Of a stretch of 47,862 nt of DNA, positions 3,695-37,809 are shown piece after piece. The notes below the pieces were generated by a model that searched no databases, had not been told where the DNA came from, and saw only the letters and a list, made by a program, of their open reading frames with translations. Within the stretch, counting starts at the first letter, position 1. Each line of letters starts with the position of its first letter. The stretch lies in the sequence record OZ346152.1; one strand, 5' to 3'. The DNA comes from a phage. The position numbers and the translations under genes are program-made.

Positions 3695-4810
3695 ATGAAA
3701 GCAAAACAAAGATTTGATAGCGCCAAAGTAAAGGCGCACTTTGATGATAACGGGTTTTTAGTTGATCGCCCTATCGTGGCGCGAATTGGTTTACAAGTCT
3801 ATCAGACTCCTTTCGGTGAGCGCCGAGAATTTCGTCCGGCGTCCGAAGTATTCAAGGCCGACTCGCTCGCCACCTTCGCAGGGAAGCCAGTCACGGTTGG
3901 TCACGTCACGGTAACGCCAGAAAACGCCGAAAAGGTTGTGGTTGGTTCTTGTGCTGGCGCTGGTGTTCCTAACGGGATCGGCGTAGAGGTTCCGTTAAGC
4001 ATTTACTCAAAACGAGCAATCGAAAGCGCGAAGAAGCGAGACACGGCGGAAATTTCAGTTGGTTATACATCGGTTGATATTGATAAACCAGGCTGGGGCA
4101 ATAATAAAACTGGTGAGTACGTTTTCGATGAGGACGTTAGCGAAGACTGGAAACCTGATTCTCCTGATTGGGTTAAGTTTGATGCAATCCAGACTGAAAT
4201 CAAGGTAAACCACATCGCGTTAGTTTTCCGAGGTCGAGCTGGCATTGCAAAATTAAACCTTGATAGCCAGCAAGATTTTCCGTATAGTGACGACGTTATT
4301 AACAACAAAGAGGATCAAATCATGACTGTAAAAATTAAACTGGATGGCGCTGTAGAGTTTGACGTGCCGAAAGCAGTTGCGGATCACATTGAATCACTGA
4401 AAGCTGATGCCAAAGCGCAGAAAGAAAAGGCGGACGGCCTGGAAGCTGAGCGAGACGCACTGCAAACCAAAGTAGATGGCATTCAGGATCAGATTGATGC
4501 CGCAGTCAAGAAAGCCAAAGAAGATGCCGCGCAACATGCTCAATTAGTAGCGGACGCTAAAGAGTTAGGCATCAAGTGCGACGGCCTGGATGCGAAAGCA
4601 ATCAAGGTTGCATACATCAAAGAAGTTATGGGAAATGACGTTTCCGATAAAACTGATGCCTATATCGAAACAGCTTTCGACATTGCCAAAAACTCTGATA
4701 AAATGGCGGCGCAGCGTAAGAGCATTAAAGGTGACTCTTTCGCGAATGAAAAGCAGGATGACGCAGGTTCTAAGCTGAATCCTAACGCTCGTTTTGAGAA
4801 ACTGAAATAA
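3695..4810 (+). CDS. putative scaffolding protein (possibly with prohead-protease-like N-terminal part)
   Basis: 371 aa; charged coiled-coil-like C-terminal half (KADAKAQKEKADGLEAERDALQTKVDG...); position before capsid genes. Confidence 0.4.
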   Translation: MKAKQRFDSAKVKAHFDDNGFLVDRPIVARIGLQVYQTPFGERREFRPASEVFKADSLATFAGKPVTVGHVTVTPENAEKVVVGSCAGAGVPNGIGVEVPLSIYSKRAIESAKKRDTAEISVGYTSVDIDKPGWGNNKTGEYVFDEDVSEDWKPDSPDWVKFDAIQTEIKVNHIALVFRGRAGIAKLNLDSQQDFPYSDDVINNKEDQIMTVKIKLDGAVEFDVPKAVADHIESLKADAKAQKEKADGLEAERDALQTKVDGIQDQIDAAVKKAKEDAAQHAQLVADAKELGIKCDGLDAKAIKVAYIKEVMGNDVSDKTDAYIETAFDIAKNSDKMAAQRKSIKGDSFANEKQDDAGSKLNPNARFEKLK

Positions 4811-4822
4811 GGAGTAATTAAA

Positions 4823-5332
4823 ATGGCTAAAATTGGAGCAAGTTATTTTGACACTATGGCGCGCGCTCTTCCTGGTCAGGTATCCGATACTTCGGCATAT
4901 AACATCGACGGCGCTTGTGTTCTTGACAAGGATGATGGAATCGCTATCCCCGTTGGCGTGGCGGTAAAATTAAAAGGCGTAGATTCTATGGGTAACAAAC
5001 TTATCGACGCCATCACTTCAAGCGGTGACGTTCCTTATGGCGTGGCTATCCGATCGCACTTCCAGACAACCGGAGAAAACGGTCGTATGGTTTATGAAGT
5101 TGGTGGAGGCATCAACGTCATGACAGAGGGTAGAGTTTGGATGGTCGTAGATGATTCCGATAAGGAAAAGACTCCACAATATCGCGAGCCTGTGAAAATT
5201 GATGATTCCACAGGATTTGTTAAAAGTTCTGGAGCAATTACAACGAACTGGATCTTTACTGGCGATAAAACAACTTACGGTTCTGGTCAGGATGTGATTA
5301 CATTGTTTGAAGTTCAGGTCTTCCCAAGCTAA
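4823..5332 (+). CDS. virion structural protein, paralog A (possible head decoration)
   Basis: 169 aa; strong AAGGAG RBS; shares NIDG..V, RS, VW and WIFTGD segments with the 5383 ORF. Confidence 0.35.
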   Translation: MAKIGASYFDTMARALPGQVSDTSAYNIDGACVLDKDDGIAIPVGVAVKLKGVDSMGNKLIDAITSSGDVPYGVAIRSHFQTTGENGRMVYEVGGGINVMTEGRVWMVVDDSDKEKTPQYREPVKIDDSTGFVKSSGAITTNWIFTGDKTTYGSGQDVITLFEVQVFPS

Positions 5333-6165: not shown

Positions 6166-6190
6166 CTGATAGCATAAAAAAACATTGCAC

Positions 6191-6209
6191 GTTTAACAAA
6201 AAGTGCTAT
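6191..6209 (+). promoter_or_regulatory. box-motif copy in reverse orientation (GTTTAACAAAAAGTGCTAT), orphan
   Basis: Lies between the 5383 ORF and the capsid terminator/RBS; no matching -10 on either strand. Confidence 0.3.
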
Positions 6210-9944: not shown

Positions 9945-9964
9945 CTTTTAACAAAAAGTGCTAT
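9945..9964 (+). promoter_or_regulatory. box-motif copy in reverse orientation (CTTTTAACAAAAAGTGCTAT) abutting the SD of the tail chaperone gene
   Basis: Perfect box core; on the minus strand N18 then TAGATT would point leftward into the terminator. Confidence 0.3.
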
Positions 9965-15830: not shown

Positions 15831-15852
15831 CCCGCCTTGCGCGGGTTTTTTT
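15831..15852 (+). terminator. rho-independent terminator
   Basis: CCCGC-CTTGC-GCGGG hairpin plus TTTTTTT; a TATAAT at 15860-15865 lies just downstream. Confidence 0.6.
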
Positions 15853-15901: not shown

Positions 15902-18900
15902 ATGGCTAAACATATGATAAGCGGCAGTAAGGGCGGAAGCAAAAAGCCATACGTGCCAAAAGAGATGGAAGATAACCTGATCTCGATAAACAAGATTAAA
16001 GTTTTGCTGGCTGTATCTGATGGCGAGTGCGATCCAGATTTCACGTTGCGTGATCTTTATCTTGATGATGTTCCTGTAATTGCCAGCGATGGCACTGTTA
16101 ACTATGAGGGGGTAACGGCTGAATATAGGCCAGGCACACAGACGCAAGATTACATCCAGGGGTTTACTGACACATCAAGCGAGGTGACAGTTTCGCGAGA
16201 TATTACAGCAGACAATCCCTATATTATCTCTGTAACAAACAAAAATCTTTCCGCAATCAGAATCAAGATTCTGATGCCAACTGGCATAAAACAGGAGGAT
16301 AACGGCGATCTTGTTGGTGTAAGGGTTCAATATGCCGTAGATATGGCTGTTGATGGCGGTTCTTATAACGAGGTTATGAGAGATGTAATTGACGGCAAGA
16401 CAAGATCAGGGTATGACCGCAGCAGAAGGATTGATCTTCCTAAGTTTGAGGAGCGCGTTTTAATCAGAGTTAAGCGACTGACTCCAGATAGCACATCTTC
16501 AAAGGTGACTGATAAAATCAAACTGCAAAGTTACGCTGAGGTTGTGGATGCAAAATTCCGTTATCCTCTGACTGGACTTGTATTCGTAGAATTTGACAGC
16601 GAATTGTTTCCTACGCAAATCCCTAACATTTCTATAAAAAAGAAATGGAAGATTATTAATGTGCCAAGCAACTACGATCCAATATCAAGAGAATATCACG
16701 GGTCATGGGATGGTACTTTTAAAAAAGCGTGGTCAAATAATCCTGCATGGGTTCTTTATGATCTGGTGACGAATCAGCGTTATGGACTTGACCAGCGAGA
16801 GTTAGGAATACAGATCGACAAGTGGAGCTTATACGAGGCAGGTGTTTACTGTGATCAGAAAGTTCCAGACGGCAAGGGCGGGACAGAGCCTCGCTACCTA
16901 TGCGATGTGGTGATCCAGAATCAAGTAGAGGCTTATCAGCTAATCCGTGACATTTGCTCAATCTTTCGCGGAATGAGCTTTTGGAATGGAGAGAGCTTAT
17001 CAATCGTGATTGATAAACCGCGCGATCCATCATACGTGTTTACTAATGAAAACGTCATCAACGGTGATTTTCAGTACACAGCAGCAAGCGAAAAAAGCAT
17101 GTACACGCAATGTAATGTGACGTTTGACGACGAACAAAACATGTATCAACAGGACGTCGAGGGTGTTTTTGATACTGAGGCGGCATTACGATTTGGATAC
17201 AATCCAACAAGCATTACAGCGATCGGGTGTACACGCAGGAGCGAAGCGAATCGTCGCGGTCGGTGGGTTTTGAAAACAAACCTTAGAAGCACTACTGTAA
17301 ACTTTGCTACTGGACTGGAGGGGATGATTCCATCAATAGGTGATGTGATTGCTATCGCTGATAATTTTCAGAGCAGCAACCTAACGTTAAACCTATCGGG
17401 CCGAGTGATGGAAGTTTCAGGATTGCAGGTTTTCGTTCCGTTTAAGGTTGATGCTCGTCCTGGTGATTTTATTATCATCAACAAGCCGGACGGCAAGCCA
17501 GTTAAGCGAACGATCTCAAAGGTGAGCGCAGACGGAAAAACCATTGAGTTAAATATTGGATTTGGTTTTGATGTTAAGCCTGATACTGTTTTTGCGATTG
17601 ACCGTACTGACCTTGCGTTGCAGCAATACGTTGTGACAACTATCAGCAAGGGTGATGACGAAAACGAGTTTACCTTTTCAATCACGGCTGTGGAGTACGA
17701 TCCGAACAAATACGACGAGATTGATTATGGCGTAAACATTGATGACAGGCCAACTTCAATTGTTCAGCCTGACGTGATGGTAGCGCCTGAGAACGTGCAG
17801 ATCTCTTCTTATTCTCGCGTCGTGCAGGGTGTAAGCGTTGAAACTATGGTTGTGTCGTGGGATAAAGTGCCTTATGCATCGCTGTATGAAATGCAGTGGC
17901 GTAAAGGTGATGGAAACTGGCTGAATACACCACAGACCGCAAACAAAGAAGTTGAGGTTGAAGGTATTTATTCAGGTAACTACCAAGTAAGGGTGAGATC
18001 TGTTTCTGCTTCCGGTTCTACGTCGCCGTGGTCAAAGATTGCAACCGCCACCCTGACAGGTAAAGTTGGCGAGCCAGGAGCGCCGATTAATCTTACAGCT
18101 TCTGATAATGAAGTTTTTGGCATTCGTGTTAAATGGGGTATGCCGGAAGGATCAGGCGATACGGCTTACATTGAGCTTCACCAATCGCCGGATGGGACGG
18201 TGGAAAACTCAAGTTTGCTTACGCTGATCCCGTATCCTCAATATGAGTATTGGCATAGCACGTTACCAGCGGGTCAAGTTGTATGGTATAGAATCCGTAG
18301 CGTTGACAGGATCGGCAACGTTTCCGGCTGGACTGACTTTGTTCGCGGCATGGCGTCAGATGATGTTGAATCTGTTTTAGGCGACATTCTGGACAAGATT
18401 TTTGATACCGAAGCGGGTCAAGAAATCAAAGAGAACGCCATAGACAGTGCAAACAAAATCAAAGACCAGGCGCAATCAATCATCCAGAACGCATTGGCAA
18501 ACGATGCCGATGTGAAGTGGACGCGAGTACAAAACGGAAAGCGTAAGGCTGAATATGGTCATGCACTGGAGCTTATTGCTACCGAAACGGAGGCGCGAGT
18601 AACTCAAATCGAAGAGTTAAAGGCGTCAATTGATGAAGATATAGTTTCAAGTATCAAAACCGTTCAGGAAGCGATTGCCAACGAATCAGAGACGCGAGCT
18701 ACTCAAGTGCAGCAGCTTGATTCTAAATTTACGAAGGAAATAGACGGCGTAAAACGAGATACGGCTGCAAGTATTGGCGAGGTAAGGCAAACAATTGCCA
18801 ATGAATCAGAAGCGCGCGCCCAGGCAGTTCAGCAGCTTGACGCCAAGTTTACGAAAGAGATAAACGACCTTGACGAAGTTATCAAGACCGAAGTCGAGGC

Positions 18901-19480
18901 TAACATCTCAGAAGTGAAACAGGCGATCGCTAATGAGACAGAGGCGAGGGTTCAGGCTGACCAGGCTTTAACAGCCAAATTCGGAGACGTTGAATCAGCA
19001 CTAGCCGAAAAACTTGATTCGTGGGCTAACGTTGATTCGGTTGGCGCTAAGTACGCTATGAAATTGGGCCTTACTTACAAGGGACAGAAGTACAGCGCAG
19101 GAATGATCATGCAGTTGTCGCAATCTTCTCAAGGCTTGATCTCGCAAATCTTGTTTGATGCTAACAGGTTCGCGATCATGACTAGCTCTACTGGCGGAAC
19201 GTTTACTTTGCCTTTCGTTGTTGAAAACAACCAGGTTTTCATTAACAGCCTGCTAGTGAAAAACGGGTCCATTACTAACGCAATGATTGGTAACGTGATT
19301 CAGTCAAATAACTTTGTTCAGAATCAGCAAGGATGGAGGCTTGATAAAAATGGTAACTTTGAGAACTACGGAACGAGAGCGGGGGAAGGTGCTACAAAAT
19401 TCACTAACGAAGGATTAAAGGTGAAAGATGCAAATGGACAATTGAGGGTTGAAATAGGGAGAATAACCGGAAGTTGGTAA
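15902..19480 (+). CDS. central tail fibre / host specificity protein (J-like)
   Basis: About 1193 aa from the ATG at 15902 (track start 15851 is TTG); fibronectin-like middle and repeated coiled-coil C-terminal segments (ANESETRA..QQLD..KFTKEI). Confidence 0.8.
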   Translation: MAKHMISGSKGGSKKPYVPKEMEDNLISINKIKVLLAVSDGECDPDFTLRDLYLDDVPVIASDGTVNYEGVTAEYRPGTQTQDYIQGFTDTSSEVTVSRDITADNPYIISVTNKNLSAIRIKILMPTGIKQEDNGDLVGVRVQYAVDMAVDGGSYNEVMRDVIDGKTRSGYDRSRRIDLPKFEERVLIRVKRLTPDSTSSKVTDKIKLQSYAEVVDAKFRYPLTGLVFVEFDSELFPTQIPNISIKKKWKIINVPSNYDPISREYHGSWDGTFKKAWSNNPAWVLYDLVTNQRYGLDQRELGIQIDKWSLYEAGVYCDQKVPDGKGGTEPRYLCDVVIQNQVEAYQLIRDICSIFRGMSFWNGESLSIVIDKPRDPSYVFTNENVINGDFQYTAASEKSMYTQCNVTFDDEQNMYQQDVEGVFDTEAALRFGYNPTSITAIGCTRRSEANRRGRWVLKTNLRSTTVNFATGLEGMIPSIGDVIAIADNFQSSNLTLNLSGRVMEVSGLQVFVPFKVDARPGDFIIINKPDGKPVKRTISKVSADGKTIELNIGFGFDVKPDTVFAIDRTDLALQQYVVTTISKGDDENEFTFSITAVEYDPNKYDEIDYGVNIDDRPTSIVQPDVMVAPENVQISSYSRVVQGVSVETMVVSWDKVPYASLYEMQWRKGDGNWLNTPQTANKEVEVEGIYSGNYQVRVRSVSASGSTSPWSKIATATLTGKVGEPGAPINLTASDNEVFGIRVKWGMPEGSGDTAYIELHQSPDGTVENSSLLTLIPYPQYEYWHSTLPAGQVVWYRIRSVDRIGNVSGWTDFVRGMASDDVESVLGDILDKIFDTEAGQEIKENAIDSANKIKDQAQSIIQNALANDADVKWTRVQNGKRKAEYGHALELIATETEARVTQIEELKASIDEDIVSSIKTVQEAIANESETRATQVQQLDSKFTKEIDGVKRDTAASIGEVRQTIANESEARAQAVQQLDAKFTKEINDLDEVIKTEVEANISEVKQAIANETEARVQADQALTAKFGDVESALAEKLDSWANVDSVGAKYAMKLGLTYKGQKYSAGMIMQLSQSSQGLISQILFDANRFAIMTSSTGGTFTLPFVVENNQVFINSLLVKNGSITNAMIGNVIQSNNFVQNQQGWRLDKNGNFENYGTRAGEGATKFTNEGLKVKDANGQLRVEIGRITGSW

Positions 19481-19510
19481 AAAAAAGGGGGCATAGCCCC
19501 CTTTAATTTT
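19481..19510. terminator. bidirectional rho-independent terminator
   Basis: GGGGGC-ATA-GCCCCC hairpin flanked by an A-run and a T-run, between convergent genes. Confidence 0.65.
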
Positions 19511-20123
19511 AATCATAGTGTGATGAATTTATAACCAAAACAGATGAAGCCGTGTAAATACCAACAGGACCAGAAGTTTGCGCAACCTGCCTAGATAAAG
19601 AATATACCCCGTTGCCATACGCGGCAGCTTGAGACTCAAATATCATGAATCCACCTAAAGACGGATTACGCACAGAGTTTAAAGCTGTTAGTGATGGCAT
19701 GATGGCGCAAGGGTATCCCAAGTTAACGTCAAAAGTGATCCCGCTTACAGATACAAGTTTTGCATCCAAAGGCTTCATCTTTCCATGATAAACCATCTCA
19801 CCATTAGCATTATAAAAAGCTATTCCGTGACTACCAGGAGGAGTAACCATATTGCTAAAAGCATAAACAAATACCTCACCTTGATTGTCGGACTTTTCTA
19901 TCTTTATTGCGTGCTTCCCACCATTATTAAACTGATTAAATGCTATGTATGATTTTGATGTTAACCTTACAAAAAAGAAGCACGGCCTATTTATTGGTAT
20001 AGAAGTATTAAAAACGGTTCCTGTTTTTGCTGATATTTTACCTTTATCTATAAGGTTAACAGGAGTGAAATCTGGACTTAACCACAATGATCCGTCTGGT
20101 TTTTTTATGCTCATCCCGTACAT
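19509..20123 (-). CDS. putative receptor-binding / tail-tip accessory protein
   Basis: 204 aa from ATG at 20123 (track start 20135 is TTG); reverse-strand locus immediately downstream of the J-like gene. Confidence 0.3.
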   Translation of the reverse strand: MYGMSIKKPDGSLWLSPDFTPVNLIDKGKISAKTGTVFNTSIPINRPCFFFVRLTSKSYIAFNQFNNGGKHAIKIEKSDNQGEVFVYAFSNMVTPPGSHGIAFYNANGEMVYHGKMKPLDAKLVSVSGITFDVNLGYPCAIMPSLTALNSVRNPSLGGFMIFESQAAAYGNGVYSLSRQVAQTSGPVGIYTASSVLVINSSHYD

Positions 20124-20125
20124 TA

Positions 20126-20404
20126 TTACCCCCAAAAAGTATATATATATCTTGAGTCAGATCCAGAAAGTCCGCTCCATGTAACAGTATCACCGCTTAC
20201 ACCTAAACTTGGAGCGCCAGGATCTCCTCCGCGCCACGAATTCATTCCAACATATATTGCTTTCAACGACTTACCTGGCGGCCTGTTTGAGTAGGTCTTA
20301 CTGCCAGATGATTGAGTAAATTTATCCAAGAAAAAAACTGGAGTTAAAAGGCCAGTAACATTTCTACCTTGCTCATCATATATTGCATACCCATATTCAG
20401 CCAT
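20126..20404 (-). CDS. hypothetical protein (receptor-binding locus)
   Basis: 92 aa; GAGGTG RBS; ends with TAATAA overlapping the next start. Confidence 0.3.
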   Translation of the reverse strand: MAEYGYAIYDEQGRNVTGLLTPVFFLDKFTQSSGSKTYSNRPPGKSLKAIYVGMNSWRGGDPGAPSLGVSGDTVTWSGLSGSDSRYIYTFWG

Positions 20405-20672
20405 TTTTGCACCTCAAATCAATGAATTTTCTTTCATCTTGCCAACGGTTGATAAATTTAACTTCTTTATTGTCAACGCTCAACCTGTATTGCTTTTGGC
20501 TGAATCTGTTTTCGCGGACAGCATTAATTTTAACCTCATGGAATCCGTTAACAGGGAATGTTTTAACGTTAAATTTTGCCGTGCAATCGATCTCCTTGAA
20601 GTTGCCAGTAGGCGAAGAAGAACATCCGGTCAGAGCGGCTACGGTGGCTATAACTGCGATTAATTTTTTCAT
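20397..20672 (-). CDS. lipoprotein (superinfection-exclusion-like, Cor/Llp-type)
   Basis: 91 aa from ATG at 20672 with AAGGAG RBS; signal peptide with lipobox LTGC; first gene of the leftward locus. Confidence 0.5.
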   Translation of the reverse strand: MKKLIAVIATVAALTGCSSSPTGNFKEIDCTAKFNVKTFPVNGFHEVKINAVRENRFSQKQYRLSVDNKEVKFINRWQDERKFIDLRCKNG

Positions 20673-20703
20673 CTTCAATACTCCTTAGTTGTTGTTGGCT
20701 GTA

Positions 20704-20746
20704 ACTATACACGATCCGACAAGCTGGGTTTAGCAAAAAGTGCTAC
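20704..20746 (-). promoter_or_regulatory. box-type promoter unit (box, N18, TATAGT) firing leftward into the lipoprotein locus
   Basis: Minus-strand GTAGCACTTTTTGCTAAAC, 18 nt, TATAGT about 30 nt upstream of the lipoprotein RBS. Confidence 0.5.
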
Positions 20747-20869
20747 ATGTTATTTTTTGTTTTACAGTGTTATCTGATTTAAGACGGCGTAAATTTAGCG
20801 CAAATTTTATCCAACATAAGGGCAATAAACAATCAATAAAATAGATATATACATATAAAATCAATAGTT

Positions 20870-21050
20870 TATTTATGTATGTATGTATATTTGTTTTTTC
20901 TTGTTATCTGTGTTTCTTGTGGTTTTGGTTGTTTGTGGTGATTTTTCTTTCTGAGTATCTGTATGTGCCATCATTCATGTGTATGTATATAATCCGGCGT
21001 ATCTGAGAGAACAAGGGAACAAGAAAAATAACACATATTAATCATTAACT
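20870..21050. repeat. AT-rich intergenic element A, paralogous to 41140-41320
   Basis: Shared blocks (tttatttat, tgttttctt, tgtgg-rich run, catgtgtatgtatata..tccggcg, aacagaaaaataaca) in the same order. Confidence 0.6.
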
Positions 21051-21116
21051 TACGTGTCAGATTTGTTTTCTTGCCATCTGAGAACGTTTAGAAAACAGAA
21101 AAAAACAAAACAACTA

Positions 21117-21144
21117 TTGACTAAATCAACCAAATGGCTACAAT
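21117..21144 (+). promoter_or_regulatory. sigma70-type promoter (TTGACT, 16 nt, TACAAT)
   Basis: Near-consensus hexamers about 30 nt upstream of the 21175 ATG. Confidence 0.55.
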
Positions 21145-21174
21145 GCACGCACAAAGCAACTAGGAGCATTAAAG

Positions 21175-22230
21175 ATGAGTGATTTTAACGCCTACACTAG
21201 CGAAGAAATGAGCAATGAGCTTTATCATGATCCTAACGCGTGGACGGCTGAATACGTCAGCGGTTCCAGCTTGGCGGAGATTTACAGCACGTGCCCGGCG
21301 TACTGGAAGTACAAGCCTCGCCAGGAAACTAAGGCACTTGTTTTCGGTACGCAGTCGCATACCAATTTTGAAAGCAAGGAGTTATTCGAAAAAACATATC
21401 GCCGCGCACCGTCGCAGGATGATTTTAAAGATCTGATCACAAGTCAAACGGCGTTGGCCTCAAAGCTGAAATCTTTTGGCCTGAAAGGTACAACTGGTAA
21501 GCAATACCCCGAATTGCTGGAAATGCTGTACAAGTGCGGTGAGGATCTCAATGTATGGTGGCTTATCGAAATGATGGCAGAATGCCAGGCCGCAGCGGAC
21601 GGCGTGCAGCTAATCGACGCGAAAGATTATGATGCCTGTGTAGCGATGCGGCGAGTACTTGAGGCAATACCTGAGCATAATGCTTGCATGAATAGCCCAA
21701 CCGCGCAGCGTGAAATGTCAATATTCGGGATCATCAATGGCGTAAAAGTTAAAGTGCGCCTTGATCACGTTGACGTAAACAAGGATGTAAAGGCCACAAT
21801 CATTAACGGTTACGACGAAAAAGGCCGACCGATTTATGAAGAAGTCATCTATCCAGAAGCTGTGATTATCACTGACTATAAAACAACGGTTAGCGCAAAT
21901 CCGGTTGACTTCCAGCGCCTGGCTTACAATCACGGCTATTATCTCAAAATGGCTTTGCAGCATGATTTATTTAAAAAGGCGTATCCAGACGAGGAAAGGC
22001 CAGTAATTGTGAGATTGCTTGCTCAAGAGAAGAAAGAGCCTTACTTGCCGCTCGCATTCCGAATGAACATTGAGCAATTGAAGATCGGTCGCATCCAGTA
22101 CATGAGCGTGATCAACAAGTTCAACGTTTGCCAACAGTTAGATGAATGGCCTTCGTATGCAAACGGGCAACCAGAAATTGATCTTGATACTCCTGATTGG
22201 GTACGCGCTCAATTCAGGCAGTATCTATGA
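21175..22230 (+). CDS. putative recombination exonuclease (PD-(D/E)xK, RecB/Cas4-like)
   Basis: 351 aa; IITDYKTT motif typical of RecB-family nuclease domains; first gene of an operon with annealing protein and SSB. Confidence 0.45.
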   Translation: MSDFNAYTSEEMSNELYHDPNAWTAEYVSGSSLAEIYSTCPAYWKYKPRQETKALVFGTQSHTNFESKELFEKTYRRAPSQDDFKDLITSQTALASKLKSFGLKGTTGKQYPELLEMLYKCGEDLNVWWLIEMMAECQAAADGVQLIDAKDYDACVAMRRVLEAIPEHNACMNSPTAQREMSIFGIINGVKVKVRLDHVDVNKDVKATIINGYDEKGRPIYEEVIYPEAVIITDYKTTVSANPVDFQRLAYNHGYYLKMALQHDLFKKAYPDEERPVIVRLLAQEKKEPYLPLAFRMNIEQLKIGRIQYMSVINKFNVCQQLDEWPSYANGQPEIDLDTPDWVRAQFRQYL

Positions 22231-23491: not shown

Positions 23492-25868
23492 AGTTAAGAG
23501 TAGTAGGATTGTTGATTAGCTTTGACAGTAAATCTTTTAATTCTGCAACCTCATTTTCAAGTTTGCTTATGCGATCATCACTTTCACGGCATACTTTCAC
23601 AAGCAATCCAGTAACAGCACCATAATCAACAGATAAGAATCTTTCCTCGCCAACTAACTGATTTCCATCCTTAGTTGGACCAGCAAGATCCGTGTACTGA
23701 GTGAATCCGCCAACAGCTTCCGGTATTGCCTCCATTACTTCTTGAGCAATTACCCCAGCATAAGGTAAACCATTCTCCTTAAGCGTGTAAGTGTATCCGC
23801 TCATTTTGCGCAATGATTCAGTCGCGTTTTCAATCTCCTCAATGTTGTCCTTAAGATCTCTGTCAGATACTTGATTGAATGCCGTCGCATTTACAGGGCC
23901 GTTAACTTGAAGATGCTTTGAGTTATCTTTATTTAACTGACCGTAAAAAATCCACCCAGGGCCGTTATCGAAAGCCCACTCAATAACAGACGGTCTATCT
24001 GACCCGTTCCCCCACAATTTGAAACTTGCAGGGTGTGATGAGTTTCCGTCGTTCTGCATATTGAAATACTTACCACTCGGTCGGTCTATCTCTAAACTCG
24101 CCGCCTGTACATATGCTTTTCCCGCAAAGTCTTTCGTACCTAACACAACCCCAGAATCGATAAGTTCAACCTTGCTTTTCGTTATGTCATTTAGAAATAA
24201 CGCACTCGTTCCAGTATCTTTACCTAAAAACCAAAGACGTGTGCCTGCGGAGTTGTACCCTGTTACGTGCAGCGGTTGGTTGTTTGTTGATGCTGTTCCG
24301 TCGATACGAAAACCGCCATTAGCGGTTGTAACTTTAATGCTTGGTACGGTCATAGCGAATGTGCCACTGGCCGCAAGGCCGTTATACGCGATCAGCTTGT
24401 TGTCATACGAAAGGCCGCCATCATCACGCAGCTGTAGCACTTTCTGCGACGTGCGGTTGCGAATGCCAACATCCGTGCCTCCTACAAACATTTCGACGAT
24501 TCGATCACCGCTTTTAGCTCTCACGTAAGCGTTATATTCCGGCGACGACCCCGCGTTATACAACTCGTACCATTTAGACCAGATGCCAGTAGTCGCGTTA
24601 CTAAGCCATCGCATAAAGCGACGCCCGCTATTGTATCCTGTAAACGTCTGTATGCAGCTTTTAGGATCGTTAGCGCCAGTGCGCTGAACAAGTAGACAAC
24701 CTGCTTCCTGAACGGGATAATTACGCTCCGGCGTTGCGTTGGCAGATAAGCTAGTATAATAAAATCCAGCCTTATCACCCTGAAGGATGTTAAGGTCTTC
24801 ACTAACCAACGTTGCCCGGCGCTCATGCATGACCTGAAGGTTTGCGCGCGCTCCCTGGTCGTTCGATGCTCCTGTCCCGCCGTCACCGATCGCCACGTCA
24901 CCATTAGCACCCAGCTTCGCCAGTTCAATGGCACCCACATTTCCAGATGAGCCGTTAATCGCGGCATTGTTTCCAGCGAAAACCTTCACGCGAGAGGTCA
25001 GGTAGTCAACGTTAAACGCAAAAAATGTGTCACCAGCACCCCCGCACACCCCAGGACCATATTTGAACGGCGTCATCTCGCCCGAAGGGAACTGAGAAAT
25101 ATCATCAACGCGCCAAAAGCCGCCTTTGACCGAATCGCGCAACCGCTTGAGCATATCCCTTACGCCAGTCGGCGCAGGTAATGTTACACCCGCATACGGC
25201 ACTCTATTTTGAGCTTCTGAACTTTCAGCAGCAGCCGCTGCGCGATCAGCCTCTGTTTTAGCCTTGTTTGCACTGTTTGCAGCATTAGTTTCCGATGTTT
25301 TAGCGTTTGTTTCAGAAGTCTTCGCGGCACTAGCCGAGTTAGCAGCATTAGTTTCCGATGTTTTAGCCGCATTCTTACTTGCATTAGCTGCATTTTCAGA
25401 TGCTTTGGCATTAGTTTCCGATGTTTTAGCGTTTGTTTCAGAAGTCTTTGCAGCACTAGCGCTCTGTTTTGCTGATTCAGCGCCTTGTTTCACCTGATTC
25501 ACAAGATCTTTCAACCCATCAAGATCGAAATCTCTAAAAAATTCAAGCGCGTCAGCAATCTCCGTTTCCTTGCTTTGATAGTAACGCAGTGTTTCCGCTA
25601 CGTCCTGCGCCAGCCCGTCAACCGTCAACGAGTCATGAAGCAAGATCAGGTAATTTGTCTTCTGGACTACCGCGCCGCCAGTAGTAATTGCGCGAATGCT
25701 TGTATCGCTAATCACCTCTGTAATCACAGCAGCTTGCAAAGGTTGAGTAAGAAAGAAAATAGTTGCACCTGGGCGAATCAATGTTAATTGCTCACGCCAT
25801 TTTGTATCGTAACCAGTTACATAACCTTGCGCGTCCATAGACGCTTGGCCTTGTCTGTAAATCGCCAT
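23490..25868 (-). CDS. side tail fibre with C-terminal intramolecular chaperone (S74-like) domain
   Basis: 792 aa from ATG at 25868 with AGGAGG RBS (track start 25892 is GTG); N-terminal SETNAK-type repeats; C-terminal [24 protein letters not shown]. Confidence 0.75.
25282..25460. repeat. imperfect tandem repeat, period about 63 bp, three copies, coding
   Basis: Near-identical blocks gcattagtttccgatgttttagc.. at 25282, 25345 and 25408 encoding the fibre's TSETNAK repeats. Confidence 0.7.
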
Positions 25869-29520: not shown

Positions 29521-29939
29521 TGGCTATAACTGATAAAGGAGATTATCTTGAGTTTTACGAAAGAGATCCAACCGACACAAGAAGGGAGGTTAATCACCAG
29601 ATAGATAGTTTTCAGTGGTTGACTTATGCTCATCCTTACTTGCTGGCGTGGCATACGGTAAACGAGAATGAGAAGTCTAAAGTAACGGCTATGATTGATC
29701 AGCAGTCCGGCTTGGTTAAGGGAGTAAGCGATTTCATCATCCTGATTGGTTTAAACGGAAAATACCCCTTTGCAGCGATTGAGATCAAACGAGTGAATAA
29801 ATCAGGCAAGGGGAAAGCATCACCAGTCAGCGATGAGCAAAAGGCTTTTTTGCGTCGCGTTCGCAGCTTAGGAGGATTCGCTGCGGTAGCCTACGGATTC
29901 AATCAGTTTAAGTTGGCTATTGAATACATGCTTAAATAG
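29520..29939 (+). CDS. VRR-NUC domain nuclease
   Basis: 139 aa; D..E.K core (SDFIIL..AIEIKR); TAATG-coupled to the helicase; TAG stop inside a box. Confidence 0.55.
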   Translation: MAITDKGDYLEFYERDPTDTRREVNHQIDSFQWLTYAHPYLLAWHTVNENEKSKVTAMIDQQSGLVKGVSDFIILIGLNGKYPFAAIEIKRVNKSGKGKASPVSDEQKAFLRRVRSLGGFAAVAYGFNQFKLAIEYMLK

Positions 29940-29979
29940 CACTTTTTGTTAAAACTGGCGCAATGGATTGCGCCATAAT
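29936..29979 (+). promoter_or_regulatory. box-type promoter unit (box, N18 hairpin, CATAAT)
   Basis: Consensus box at 29936-29955; spacer TGGCGCAATGGATTGCGC is an inverted repeat; CATAAT at 29974-29979. Confidence 0.55.
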
Positions 29980-30018
29980 TCAATAACACGAGATTGCTTT
30001 TAATAGCGGAGAAATGAA

Positions 30019-30748: not shown

Positions 30749-31006
30749 ATGAAAAAAGAGAGAAGCGTTTATTTAAATGAAACTGGCGAATGGTTGTTAT
30801 TTCGCGCTATGGTGTGCGATGCACTTGATAAAAATCCTAACGTGAAAAAGATGATTGATTGCGATCCGTGGGAATTTTCAAGCGCATTAGATATGAGCTT
30901 TGAGGAGACAAGAAAACTCCCGCTTGAAAAATGGCACGAACAAATCAGAAATGACATGCAAGAGTTTGTCGATTCGTGGAATTTTCAGCACGGAATGATC
31001 CACTAA
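30749..31006 (+). CDS. hypothetical protein
   Basis: 85 aa; GGAG RBS; stop TAA-TAG merges into a box. Confidence 0.4.
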   Translation: MKKERSVYLNETGEWLLFRAMVCDALDKNPNVKKMIDCDPWEFSSALDMSFEETRKLPLEKWHEQIRNDMQEFVDSWNFQHGMIH

Positions 31007-31049
31007 TAGCACTTTTTGTTAAAACGCCCGGCCTAGTGTCGGGCATAAT
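31006..31049 (+). promoter_or_regulatory. box-type promoter unit (box, N18 hairpin GCCCGGCCTAGTGTCGGG, CATAAT)
   Basis: The whole 44-bp unit is nearly identical, in inverted orientation, to the unit at 34223-34266. Confidence 0.55.
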
Positions 31050-31081
31050 TATTTCAACGAAGCAAACATGAGGAAATAAAA

Positions 31082-34186: not shown

Positions 34187-34222
34187 AATTTTACCTTTTG
34201 GTTGTTTCGTTTCGATGAAACA

Positions 34223-34266
34223 AATATACCCGACACTAGGCCGGGCGTTTTAACAAAAAATGCTAT
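34223..34266 (-). promoter_or_regulatory. box-type promoter unit (box, N18 hairpin, TATATT), inverted copy of the 31006 unit
   Basis: Minus strand ATAGCATTTTTTGTTAAAAC, GCCCGGCCTAGTGTCGGG, TATATT. Confidence 0.55.
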
Positions 34267-34457
34267 TCCATACGCTTTACCGTAACCAGTAATACACCAT
34301 CATCATTGCATAAAACATGTTCAGTGGTGCTAAAAGCGCGCATATCTGAATAAAGTAGCGTAAGTAAAGCATGAATAAAATCCTCATGTGATATTGAATT
34401 TACGGCGCAGTGCTTCAAGATCTTGTCTATTAGCTTTTGCCTGGAACAATTCATCAT
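34263..34457 (-). CDS. hypothetical protein (overlaps the 3' end of the 34384 gene out of frame)
   Basis: 64 aa; GGGGAG RBS; TAG stop inside the box; real status uncertain. Confidence 0.25.
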   Translation of the reverse strand: MMNCSRQKLIDKILKHCAVNSISHEDFIHALLTLLYSDMRAFSTTEHVLCNDDGVLLVTVKRME

Positions 34458-37058: not shown

Positions 37059-37102
37059 ATTATGCCAGGTTTTTACACCTGGCTTTTAACAAAAAGTGCT
37101 AT
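37059..37102 (-). promoter_or_regulatory. box-type promoter unit (box, palindromic N18 CCAGGTGTAAAAACCTGG, CATAAT)
   Basis: Perfect box core on the minus strand; 18-nt hairpin spacer; CATAAT. Confidence 0.55.
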
Positions 37103-37809
37103 TTTGAGTTTGACTCAAAGACGGCGCGAGCAAAGCCGCGCGGAGTGAGGGAGCGGATCATCTTTGTGCGCGATGACTTGCCGCCAGTTTTGGCCCATCC
37201 TGGATTATCTTTGTCTTCCTCTTTCGGCAGGATTAAAGCGCGTGGAGGAATAACAAAGCCGTTGCCAGTCCAGAGGCACGTTTTCTTAAAGTAGCGATCC
37301 CGCGCCGGAATAATATCAGGGAAGTCGGGATGTTTATCATCTTCCGGCAGATAGCCAGCGTAATCGCACGGATGGAACGTATAATCAGGCTTTCGCCATA
37401 ACGTTGACAACTTGCCAACCGGATTTTCGATCATGTAAGGAACACCGAAATAATCAGCTATATCAGCCGCGATCCTGCAAGTGTCGGCGGCCTCATCCTG
37501 GAACGATGGATTCTCAAGGCGTTTTTTGGCCCAATGGCGAGATCCGCTATTTGCAAGGTCGGTGCATGGTGGAAATGCCATAATAAAGTCAGGAATGCCC
37601 CATTCCTCCCAGCGCGCGCGGTGGTAAAATCTTTCATCAATCCAGACGTTAACGTATTCGATATTCTCATGCTGTATGCGCACTGACTGGTAATCACCGT
37701 GATCGCCGCCGTCAGCATTAAAGCAAATGCACTTATAGCCATTATCAGCCCAATCTTTAACGGCTTTACCAGATCCATCAAATAGGGAGAATATTAAACC
37801 TTTATACAT
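37099..37809 (-). CDS. DNA C5-cytosine methyltransferase-like protein (small Dcm-type)
   Basis: 236 aa from ATG at 37809 with GAGG RBS; motif I-like FSLFDGSG, motif IV-like PPCTDLANSG, motif VI-like IENPVG; TAG stop inside the box. Confidence 0.55.
   Translation of the reverse strand: MYKGLIFSLFDGSGKAVKDWADNGYKCICFNADGGDHGDYQSVRIQHENIEYVNVWIDERFYHRARWEEWGIPDFIMAFPPCTDLANSGSRHWAKKRLENPSFQDEAADTCRIAADIADYFGVPYMIENPVGKLSTLWRKPDYTFHPCDYAGYLPEDDKHPDFPDIIPARDRYFKKTCLWTGNGFVIPPRALILPKEEDKDNPGWAKTGGKSSRTKMIRSLTPRGFARAVFESNSK

Follow-up and report, generated by a model that had tools for sequence, protein, structure and literature searches.

Small siphophages carry a "bona fide RBP locus downstream of gpJ", in which the alleles of the receptor-binding protein (RBP) match terminal receptor specificity and a cognate exclusion protein is included (Maffei et al. 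2021; PMC8594841). A 2026 preprint confirmed this gpJ-downstream locus on 64 T1-like phages, and published comparisons found the receptor type to be constant within each RBP family at >30% identity (10.64898/2026.04.02.716166). An "extended cor cassette" is known from T1, N15, HK022, phi80 and ES18 (PMC13164509). Here, we analyze a locus of this kind at positions 19509-20746 of the phage sequence record OZ346152.1, a 47,862-nucleotide (nt) stretch hereafter called the window, which derives from a Tempevirinae (T1-like) coliphage. The locus comprises three minus-strand open reading frames (ORFs) coding for proteins of 204, 92 and 91 amino acids (aa). Judged by homology, it is a BtuB-type allele of the known RBP locus downstream of gpJ, and the cassette as a whole probably represents a BtuB-type modular host-recognition system made up of two virion tip proteins and a putative exclusion lipoprotein.

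The 1.5-kb region is 96-98% identical at the nucleotide level to its counterparts in the GenBank phages JLBYU07, JLBYU26, vB_EcoS-95, the BEK phages, tonijn and Poky, and ~87% identical to those in ~50 further Warwickvirus genomes. The products of genes 84, 85 and 86 of vB_EcoS-95 match the 204-, 92- and 91-aa proteins at 203/204, 92/92 and 91/91 positions, with an N63T substitution as the sole difference. In the same order, the proteins are 86, 93 and 94% identical to those of FritzSarasin (Bas04), and 63, 73 and 56% identical to those of KarlJaspers (Bas06); identity to gp35-37 of the Dhillonvirus PTXU06 is 53-72%. The same trio follows J in Bas04, Bas06, Kalemo, PTXU06 and vB_EcoS-95. Compared with the BtuB-type loci of Bas04, Bas06, vB_EcoS-95 and PTXU06, the gene order, orientation and terminator are the same, as is, among the Tempevirinae, a box element described below, and we find no substantive difference. 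The allele is thereby homologous to those of two phages with an experimentally determined terminal receptor: Bas04 and Bas06 are BtuB-dependent in the receptor assignments of the BASEL tables, and random-barcode transposon sequencing (RB-TnSeq) of both returned btuB, sdaC and dcrB as strong hits (10.64898/2026.04.02.716166). Since sdaC and dcrB are among these hits, the window phage, by analogy, probably depends for DNA entry on the inner-membrane/periplasmic SdaC-DcrB pair as well. As the GenBank matches indicate, the sequence of the three-gene cassette is already known many times over and is ordinary. A first reading of the DNA made from the sequence alone (the sequence-only reading) had taken this locus for the most likely place for host-range novelty in the genome; it does determine host range, yet it is no place of novelty, because a known BtuB-type allele is found almost unchanged in many published phages.

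The FhuA-type extended cor cassettes (ST32/ST31/ST30 of T1, gp22-24 of N15, gp30-32 of ES18, and those of phi80 and HK022) occupy the same place after J and likewise combine a phrog_557 and a phrog_425 protein with a lipoprotein bearing a Cys pair; hairpin motifs and a ...YD C-terminus are also held in common. In T1 and ES18 the cassette consists of a gp22-like protein, a gp23-like protein and Cor; T1 ST31, ST32 and ST30/Cor belong to the three PHROG families matched by the 204-, 92- and 91-aa proteins, respectively, and ES18 gp31, gp30 and gp32 bear the corresponding product names. The receptor, however, is FhuA. The large protein is 23-25% identical to its counterparts in this group (23% to that of T1), the pairwise similarity of the small proteins is not significant, and the lipoproteins resemble each other within the signal peptide only. 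Moreover, in T1 and ES18 the pair reads in the same direction as J while cor converges, whereas in the window all three genes are inverted and form one leftward operon. T1 aligns with the window on both flanks of the locus but not across 19373-21241, and PTXU06 aligns at 19672-20632 only. The G+C content of the locus is 0.393 as against 0.451 for the window, which puts it in the lowest 3% of same-size windows. With similarity breaking at its borders in these alignments, the locus behaves as an exchangeable cassette.

The LptD-type systems comprise those of Oekolampad (RBP bas18_0025, PDB 9rpt chain C; superinfection-exclusion (SE) lipoprotein bas18_0026) and Rtp44/Rtp45. Oekolampad presents the same convergent layout as the window, with the lipoprotein gene first. 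It differs in having a single 321-aa RBP of phrog_1265 directed at LptDE, with no 92-aa partner and 17% identity to the window protein; its SE lipoprotein is unrelated in the mature part to that of the window. At the level of sequence families the 204-aa protein falls outside this group: it gives no hit in phrog_1265, and its family hidden Markov model (HMM), searched against RBP_Oeko as a single sequence, reaches only E 0.008. The locus is not related in sequence to the pb5/Llp system of T5 or to the BtuB-binding pb5 homologues of BF23-like phages, pb5 being a protein of ~640 aa that is encoded elsewhere in the genome. In contrast, the short-tailed Shiga toxin (Stx) phages (VT2-Sakai orf62-orf64; the 933W group) code for homologues of both the 92-aa (51%) and the 204-aa protein (46%) after a fibre gene, and the C-terminus of that fibre, ...NGRLAVRIGRLR, resembles the J tip, ...NGQLRVEIGRITGSW. 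These phages are podoviruses, their genes are co-directional with the fibre gene, and no lipoprotein gene is adjacent (lom follows). Stx-converting short-tailed phages are reported to use BamA (YaeT). VT2-Sakai orf62 resembles the C-terminal part of J, which implies that the short-tailed Stx phages carry the same tip module. We also observed that the annotated 75-aa orf63 at 4714-4995 of VT2-Sakai (AP000363) probably has a wrong start; initiation at a GTG 18 codons further upstream in the same frame gives a product of 93 aa with the conserved EYGFAIYNRNN motif of the 92-aa family.

The gene layout bears out the sequence-only reading in its description and coordinates of three minus-strand genes lying between a terminator and a control region, as seen in both the ORF list and a hairpin scan. 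The J-like central tail fibre/tail-tip gene (15902..19480, plus strand), whose counterparts are annotated as J-like tail tip proteins in Bas04, Bas06, T1 and ES18, has an uncertain start, with the ORF opening at a TTG at 15851 and the first ATG at 15902. A bidirectional intrinsic terminator hairpin, AAAGGGGGC-ATA-GCCCCCTTT (19484..19504; 9 pairs, 6 of them G-C, with T-runs on both strands), begins 4 nt past the J stop (19480) and lies 4 nt past the 204-aa stop (19509). It is common to the J gene and the leftward operon and is all that intervenes between the two stops, so the trio lies immediately downstream of the J-like gene. On the minus strand follow the gene for the 204-aa, 22.0 kDa predicted RBP of the BtuB type (19509..20123; 208 aa if read from an upstream TTG), that for its putative 92-aa, 10.0 kDa partner of the N15 gp22/T1 ST32 family (20126..20404), and that for the 91-aa prolipoprotein, a predicted superinfection-exclusion factor (20397..20672; 93 aa if read from a TTG). 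The stop of the lipoprotein gene overlaps the start of the 92-aa gene by 8 nt (ATGGCTGA), and 2 nt separate the 92-aa stop from the 204-aa ATG; because of this tight packing we conclude that the three genes form one operon with the lipoprotein gene first. The 204-aa ATG is preceded by a GGGGG Shine-Dalgarno sequence and the lipoprotein ATG by AAGGAG 8 nt upstream.

Among the PHROG profiles, the 204-aa protein matches phrog_425, the N15 gp23/T1 ST31 family, over its full length (E 1.1e-50, with residues 4-208 covering positions 2-224 of the 224 in the profile) and the 92-aa protein matches phrog_557 likewise (E 6.2e-21; residues 3-92 on 2-92 of 100); T1 ST31 and ST32 hit the same two profiles (E 9e-68 and 2e-31, respectively). 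Sequence searches of the three proteins against Pfam, NCBIfam and the PDB returned nothing significant. The databases name phrog_425 "membrane associated protein" and phrog_557 "outer membrane protein", and these names have been propagated via RefSeq and Pharokka. Taken together with the suggestion in the KanT1 paper of a superinfection exclusion (Sie)-related role for the T1 homologues (PMC13164509), and with the presence of all three genes in one operon headed by the lipoprotein, they could be understood to mean that the two larger proteins act at the membrane in support of the lipoprotein, with the trio being an exclusion cassette and receptor specificity residing in J. We consider this very improbable. 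Neither protein has a signal peptide or a transmembrane segment (maximal KD19 values 1.23 and 0.59), and with no export signal neither could reach BtuB from inside an infected cell. Furthermore, liquid chromatography-mass spectrometry of purified vB_EcoS-95 virions detected gp84 (22.0 kDa, 2 peptides, 13% coverage) and gp85 (10.0 kDa, 3 peptides, 55% coverage) along with the J-like gp83, but not the lipoprotein gp86 (PMC6340994); given the near identity of gp84 and gp85 to the window proteins, these published data speak for the presence of the latter in the virion. In T1 and ES18 it is with J that the pair is co-directional, cor being on the other strand, and in the Stx phages the pair follows a J-tip-like fibre gene with no Cor-like gene at all. 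J itself tracks receptor type poorly, since its last 60 residues are 67% identical between the FhuA-type T1 and the window phage.

Both "membrane" names look like legacy mis-annotations, as they are without basis in a signal or transmembrane segment and are contradicted by the virion proteomics. The latter, the lack of an export signal and the match of the 204-aa model to a solved RBP fold argue against the two larger proteins belonging to the exclusion machinery. The earlier suggestion that the 204-aa and/or the 92-aa product could be the receptor-binding determinant is supported, as far as computational analysis and published work reach, by virion mass spectrometry, BtuB-type homology and fold.

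Structure prediction and homology search, which the sequence-only reading had put forward as checks, yielded the families phrog_425 and phrog_557 and an AlphaFold2 model of the 204-aa protein (mean pLDDT 80.8) with two beta-sandwich domains, whose fold matches that of the solved Oekolampad RBP (PDB 9rpt_C), also the top hit by Foldseek. The models thereby suggest a structural relationship between the BtuB/FhuA-type and the LptD-type RBPs. Among 18 members of the family, conservation is highest in an N-terminal arm (residues 1-25), in a hairpin between the two domains (97-118) and in the C-terminal strand, ...VLVINxSxYD. The arm and the hairpin are exactly the low-confidence parts of the monomer model, and because they are conserved nonetheless, we infer that they may fold only on partners. 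Poor order is also seen in RBP_Oeko, in the part nearest the tail (10.1101/2025.07.07.663478). Relative to the Stx-phage homologues, residues 144-195 are 13-15% identical, as against 72% for the N-terminal arm and 78-89% for the C-terminal strand. A weak HMM alignment places residues 96-172 on positions 211-295 of RBP_Oeko, and just past these, in the same C-terminal region, Gln299 of RBP_Oeko contacts LptD (10.1101/2025.07.07.663478). In view of this hypervariability and of the alignment near the LptD-contacting region, residues 144-195 are the likely BtuB-contacting surface.

It might still be that the cassette is directed at a different protein of the outer membrane instead of BtuB, for instance another TonB-dependent transporter, given that the RBP differs by 14% from that of Bas04, including at positions within 26-96 (76% identity). 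This appears quite improbable to us: Bas06, at 63% identity, still uses BtuB, the 144-195 segment is 88% identical to that of P0002, the representative of an 85%-identical cluster, and such distances lie well inside the range over which receptor type is constant within families.

A hairpin motif of the form G-h-x-h-x-D/N-x-x-G recurs throughout this module. It is found at the N-terminus of the 92-aa protein (EYGYAIYDEQGR, there in the form YG-x-x-I-x-D-x-x-G), at the N-terminus of the 204-aa protein (MYGMSIKKPDGS) and inside the latter (SHGIAFYNANGE), twice near the C-terminus of J (GWRLDKNGN and GLKVKDANGQ), and also in T1, ES18 and RBP_Oeko. The C-terminus of J, ...NGQLRVEIGRITGSW, with a motif conserved in T1, ES18 and PTXU06, is the presumed docking site for the tip proteins. 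How the two proteins would share the work at the tip admits a refinement of the above explanation, not a contradiction of it, namely that the 204-aa protein alone binds the receptor, while the 92-aa protein is an adaptor or stabilizer between the J tip and the RBP that makes no contact with BtuB. Such an arrangement has nearly as much to be said for it as against it. In the LptD-type cassette one RBP chain suffices and a small partner is lacking; among the BtuB-type phages, conservation is higher in the 92-aa than in the 204-aa protein (93% vs 86% to Bas04; 73% vs 63% to Bas06), and its most invariant part is the N-terminal half with the docking-like motif. Its central region (~50-70), on the other hand, varies between alleles.

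The promoter-proximal product was described in the sequence-only reading as a lipoprotein with a signal peptide and the lipobox LTGC, and its translation confirms this: the 91-aa prolipoprotein starts with MKKLIAVIATVAALTG/C, a classical lipobox LTG/C17 with Ser at +2, and gives a weak match to Pfam LPAM_1. By the +2 sorting rule, Ser at this position predicts sorting to the outer membrane. Cys30 and Cys88 are invariant in 13 homologues, and the same Cys pair is seen in the Cor proteins of T1 and ES18. The protein therefore has the form of the Cor type, i.e., a lipobox, a small mature part, and a Cys soon after the anchor that is paired with one near the C-terminus, and it sits where the exclusion lipoproteins Cor, Rtp45 and SE_Oeko sit. 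Its attribution to the "Cor/Llp type" in the earlier reading holds for this form and position but not for family membership. The weak match to phrog_1119 (Cor; E 6e-8) disappears without the signal peptide, the mature part by itself does not hit Cor, BLASTP against T1 Cor aligns residues 1-34 only, and the NCBIfam Cor model NF047972 scores 18.6 bits, below its curated cutoff of 31. Membership in the Cor family is accordingly not demonstrated. The predicted structure is a small beta-barrel (pLDDT 72.5) that overlaps Llp (PDB 8a60_B, 7qjf), though it matches Llp no better than it does generic SH3-like barrels, so that this resemblance is non-specific. Because the curated Cor threshold is failed, exclusion is proposed by analogy: the protein may well work like Cor, Llp or Rtp45, but it cannot be called a Cor.

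That the mature part does not significantly resemble Cor, Llp or Rtp45, and that weak, signal-peptide-driven matches extend to the lipoproteins TrbH, TrbK and TraV, would also fit a role unrelated to receptor blocking, such as lysis, envelope remodelling or host fitness. We regard such a role as improbable, given that the lipoprotein gene is linked to the RBP genes in every allele examined, whether of the BtuB, FhuA or LptD type, and that its product varies in step with the RBP (identities of 94% and 56% accompany RBP identities of 86% and 63%, respectively); TrbK itself, moreover, is an entry-exclusion lipoprotein. The proven exclusion factors Cor and Rtp45 occupy the same position, and Rtp45, a relative of the Oekolampad lipoprotein, is structurally proven (10.1101/2025.07.07.663478). 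The KanT1 paper notes the association and proposes that the mechanism extends to BtuB (PMC13164509).

The leftward operon is preceded by a box repeat, TAGCACTTTTTGCTAAACC (20727..20745, minus strand), a copy of the Tempevirinae 21-nt repeat aaATAGCACnnnTTGnTAAAA that is presumed to be its promoter or activator element. Copies within 2 mismatches of TAGCACTTTTTGTTAAAAC number 13 in the window, as against 0 expected from 100 shuffles. A -10-like hexamer, TATAGT (20704..20709, minus strand), lies 17-18 nt downstream of the box, and the same architecture of a box, a 17-18 nt spacer, a -10-like hexamer, a ribosome-binding site and a start codon is seen in ~10 other copies. In phage TLS the repeat aaATAGCACnnnTTGnTAAAA is oriented with transcription ~76 nt upstream of start codons, and the authors leave its function open between a promoter-associated UP-like element, an enhancer site and a "stoperator" (PMC11447400); in the window, it shows the same orientation and the distance from the box to the lipoprotein ATG (20672) is ~73 nt. 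The box and a GATCGTGTATAGTT block upstream of the lipoprotein gene are kept in Bas04, Kalemo and Bas06, in the last of these despite protein identities of no more than 56-73%. Dhillonvirus phages and T1 have ordinary sigma-70-like promoters at the equivalent place. When scanned with the plain sigma-70 consensus, the locus shows no promoter on the minus strand, so the term "promoter" reflects the architecture here; of the box promoter placed at 20704-20746 by the earlier reading, the box and the hexamer are indeed present, while the promoter role is presumed.

Several observations on the other copies of the box are worth recording. In a number of them (29937-29980, 31007-31050, 34206-34267, 37083-37130 and others) the 18-nt spacer between box and hexamer is a GC-rich inverted repeat, e.g., tggcgcaatggattgcgcca and gcccggcctagtgtcgggc, and on the opposite strand these spacers read as a hairpin followed by GTTTTAAC, resembling an intrinsic terminator. 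Such elements, to go by their sequence, may act as a promoter one way and as a terminator the other. The copies at 31005-31066 and 34206-34267 form an 89% inverted repeat bracketing a 3-kb block. Two minus-strand copies (6190-6208 and 9945-9963) lie antisense inside the rightward structural-gene region, and the one at 9963 overlaps the ribosome-binding site of a plus-strand gene, with a terminator-like hairpin within ~50 nt on the minus strand. Candidate roles for these two would be an antisense transcript or an orientation-independent binding site.

Combining these lines of evidence, we propose the following mechanism. A leftward transcript would run from the box/-10 element near 20700 to the shared terminator at 19484-19504 and encode all three proteins. 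The 92-aa and 204-aa proteins would be built into the virion, as mass spectrometry has shown for their near-identical vB_EcoS-95 counterparts, presumably at the tail tip, where they would attach non-covalently to the J fibre trimer at its conserved C-terminus by means of the hairpin motifs of both proteins and the N-terminal arm and C-terminal strand of the 204-aa protein. The variable C-terminal beta-sandwich of the latter (~144-195), to judge from the correlation of allele with receptor and from the fold, would contact the extracellular face of the TonB-dependent transporter BtuB, and this contact would be the irreversible step that triggers DNA ejection. The 91-aa product would in turn undergo export and lipidation at Cys17 and reach the outer membrane, where it would sit in the inner leaflet. 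There, by analogy with Llp-FhuA and Rtp45-LptD, it might bind BtuB from the periplasm and change the surface loops of the transporter, such that superinfecting phages and released progeny would no longer be able to bind infected cells or debris.

Several points weigh against this interpretation. The assignment of BtuB dependence is carried over from relatives whose RBPs share 63-86% identity with that of the window. In the preprint, the AlphaFold3 model of BtuB with the RBP is weak for Bas04 (ipTM 0.47) as against 0.82 for Bas06, with the modelled gene named by a re-annotated coding-sequence number only (10.64898/2026.04.02.716166). The mass-spectrometry support for the 204-aa protein is thin, amounting to the 2 peptides and 13% coverage given above. 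For a BtuB-directed exclusion lipoprotein in Drexlerviridae, we found no demonstration in the searchable literature. Finally, the same box element precedes non-structural genes elsewhere in the window, and it is unusual for two virion genes to be co-transcribed from it behind a non-structural gene.

Features bordering the locus and repeats in the neighbouring fibre genes were also noted. The "control region" that separates the operon from the rightward gene for exonuclease VIII (20750-21175) is an intergenic stretch with 32% GC. Short tandem-like runs occur in it (ATGTATGTATGTATAT; GTTTCTTGTGGTTTTGGTTGTTTGTGG, repeat family D11), and a promoter resembling the sigma-70 type lies on the plus strand at 21117-21144. 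In Kalemo three tiny ORFs annotated between the box and the exonuclease gene look spurious, lying as they do upstream of the presumed operon promoter in a region of 32% GC. In the J-like gene, a 78-nt in-frame unit is repeated 120 nt apart at 18669-18866, in the QAIANESEAR coiled-coil region, and in the gene for the 800-aa lateral tail fibre, in-frame repeats spaced by 21/42/63 nt at 25282-25460 encode KTSETNA repeats.

The recurring hairpin motif prompted a further idea that we hold to be rather doubtful, namely that the 92-aa and 204-aa proteins combine into a single heteromeric, pseudo-threefold module that caps the trimeric J fibre at the tip. They would then supply three beta-sandwich units of ~100 residues, each opened by the hairpin motif, as a split version of the single-chain ~320-aa LptD-type RBP, and a portable adhesin module of J-tip, small and large protein would be common to the T1-like siphophages, the lambdoid FhuA phages and the short-tailed Stx phages. 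An hhalign comparison of the 92-aa family with the 204-aa family or its halves recovers just the 15-residue hairpin motif, at a probability of 5-9%, and the 92-aa profile run against 1.84 billion representatives finds stand-alone proteins of ~85-99 aa only, and no fused ~300-aa protein. Multi-stretch matches of this profile in long repetitive proteins were set aside as unrelated according to Pfam. With these sequence and database tests negative or marginal, the idea stays speculative.

The picture that emerged from the BASEL and receptor-prediction studies is left unchanged by our analysis. It enables the locus to be annotated with confidence as coding for two tail-tip/receptor-binding proteins and one candidate exclusion lipoprotein, with BtuB as the predicted terminal receptor. 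What it adds, modestly, is a strong fold link between the BtuB/FhuA-type and the LptD-type RBPs, the argument that proteins named for membranes belong to the virion tip, and the finding that Stx phages possess the same module. Were the split-module idea true, the FhuA, BtuB and LptD RBP families, which have been described as unrelated, would be one ancient structural family.

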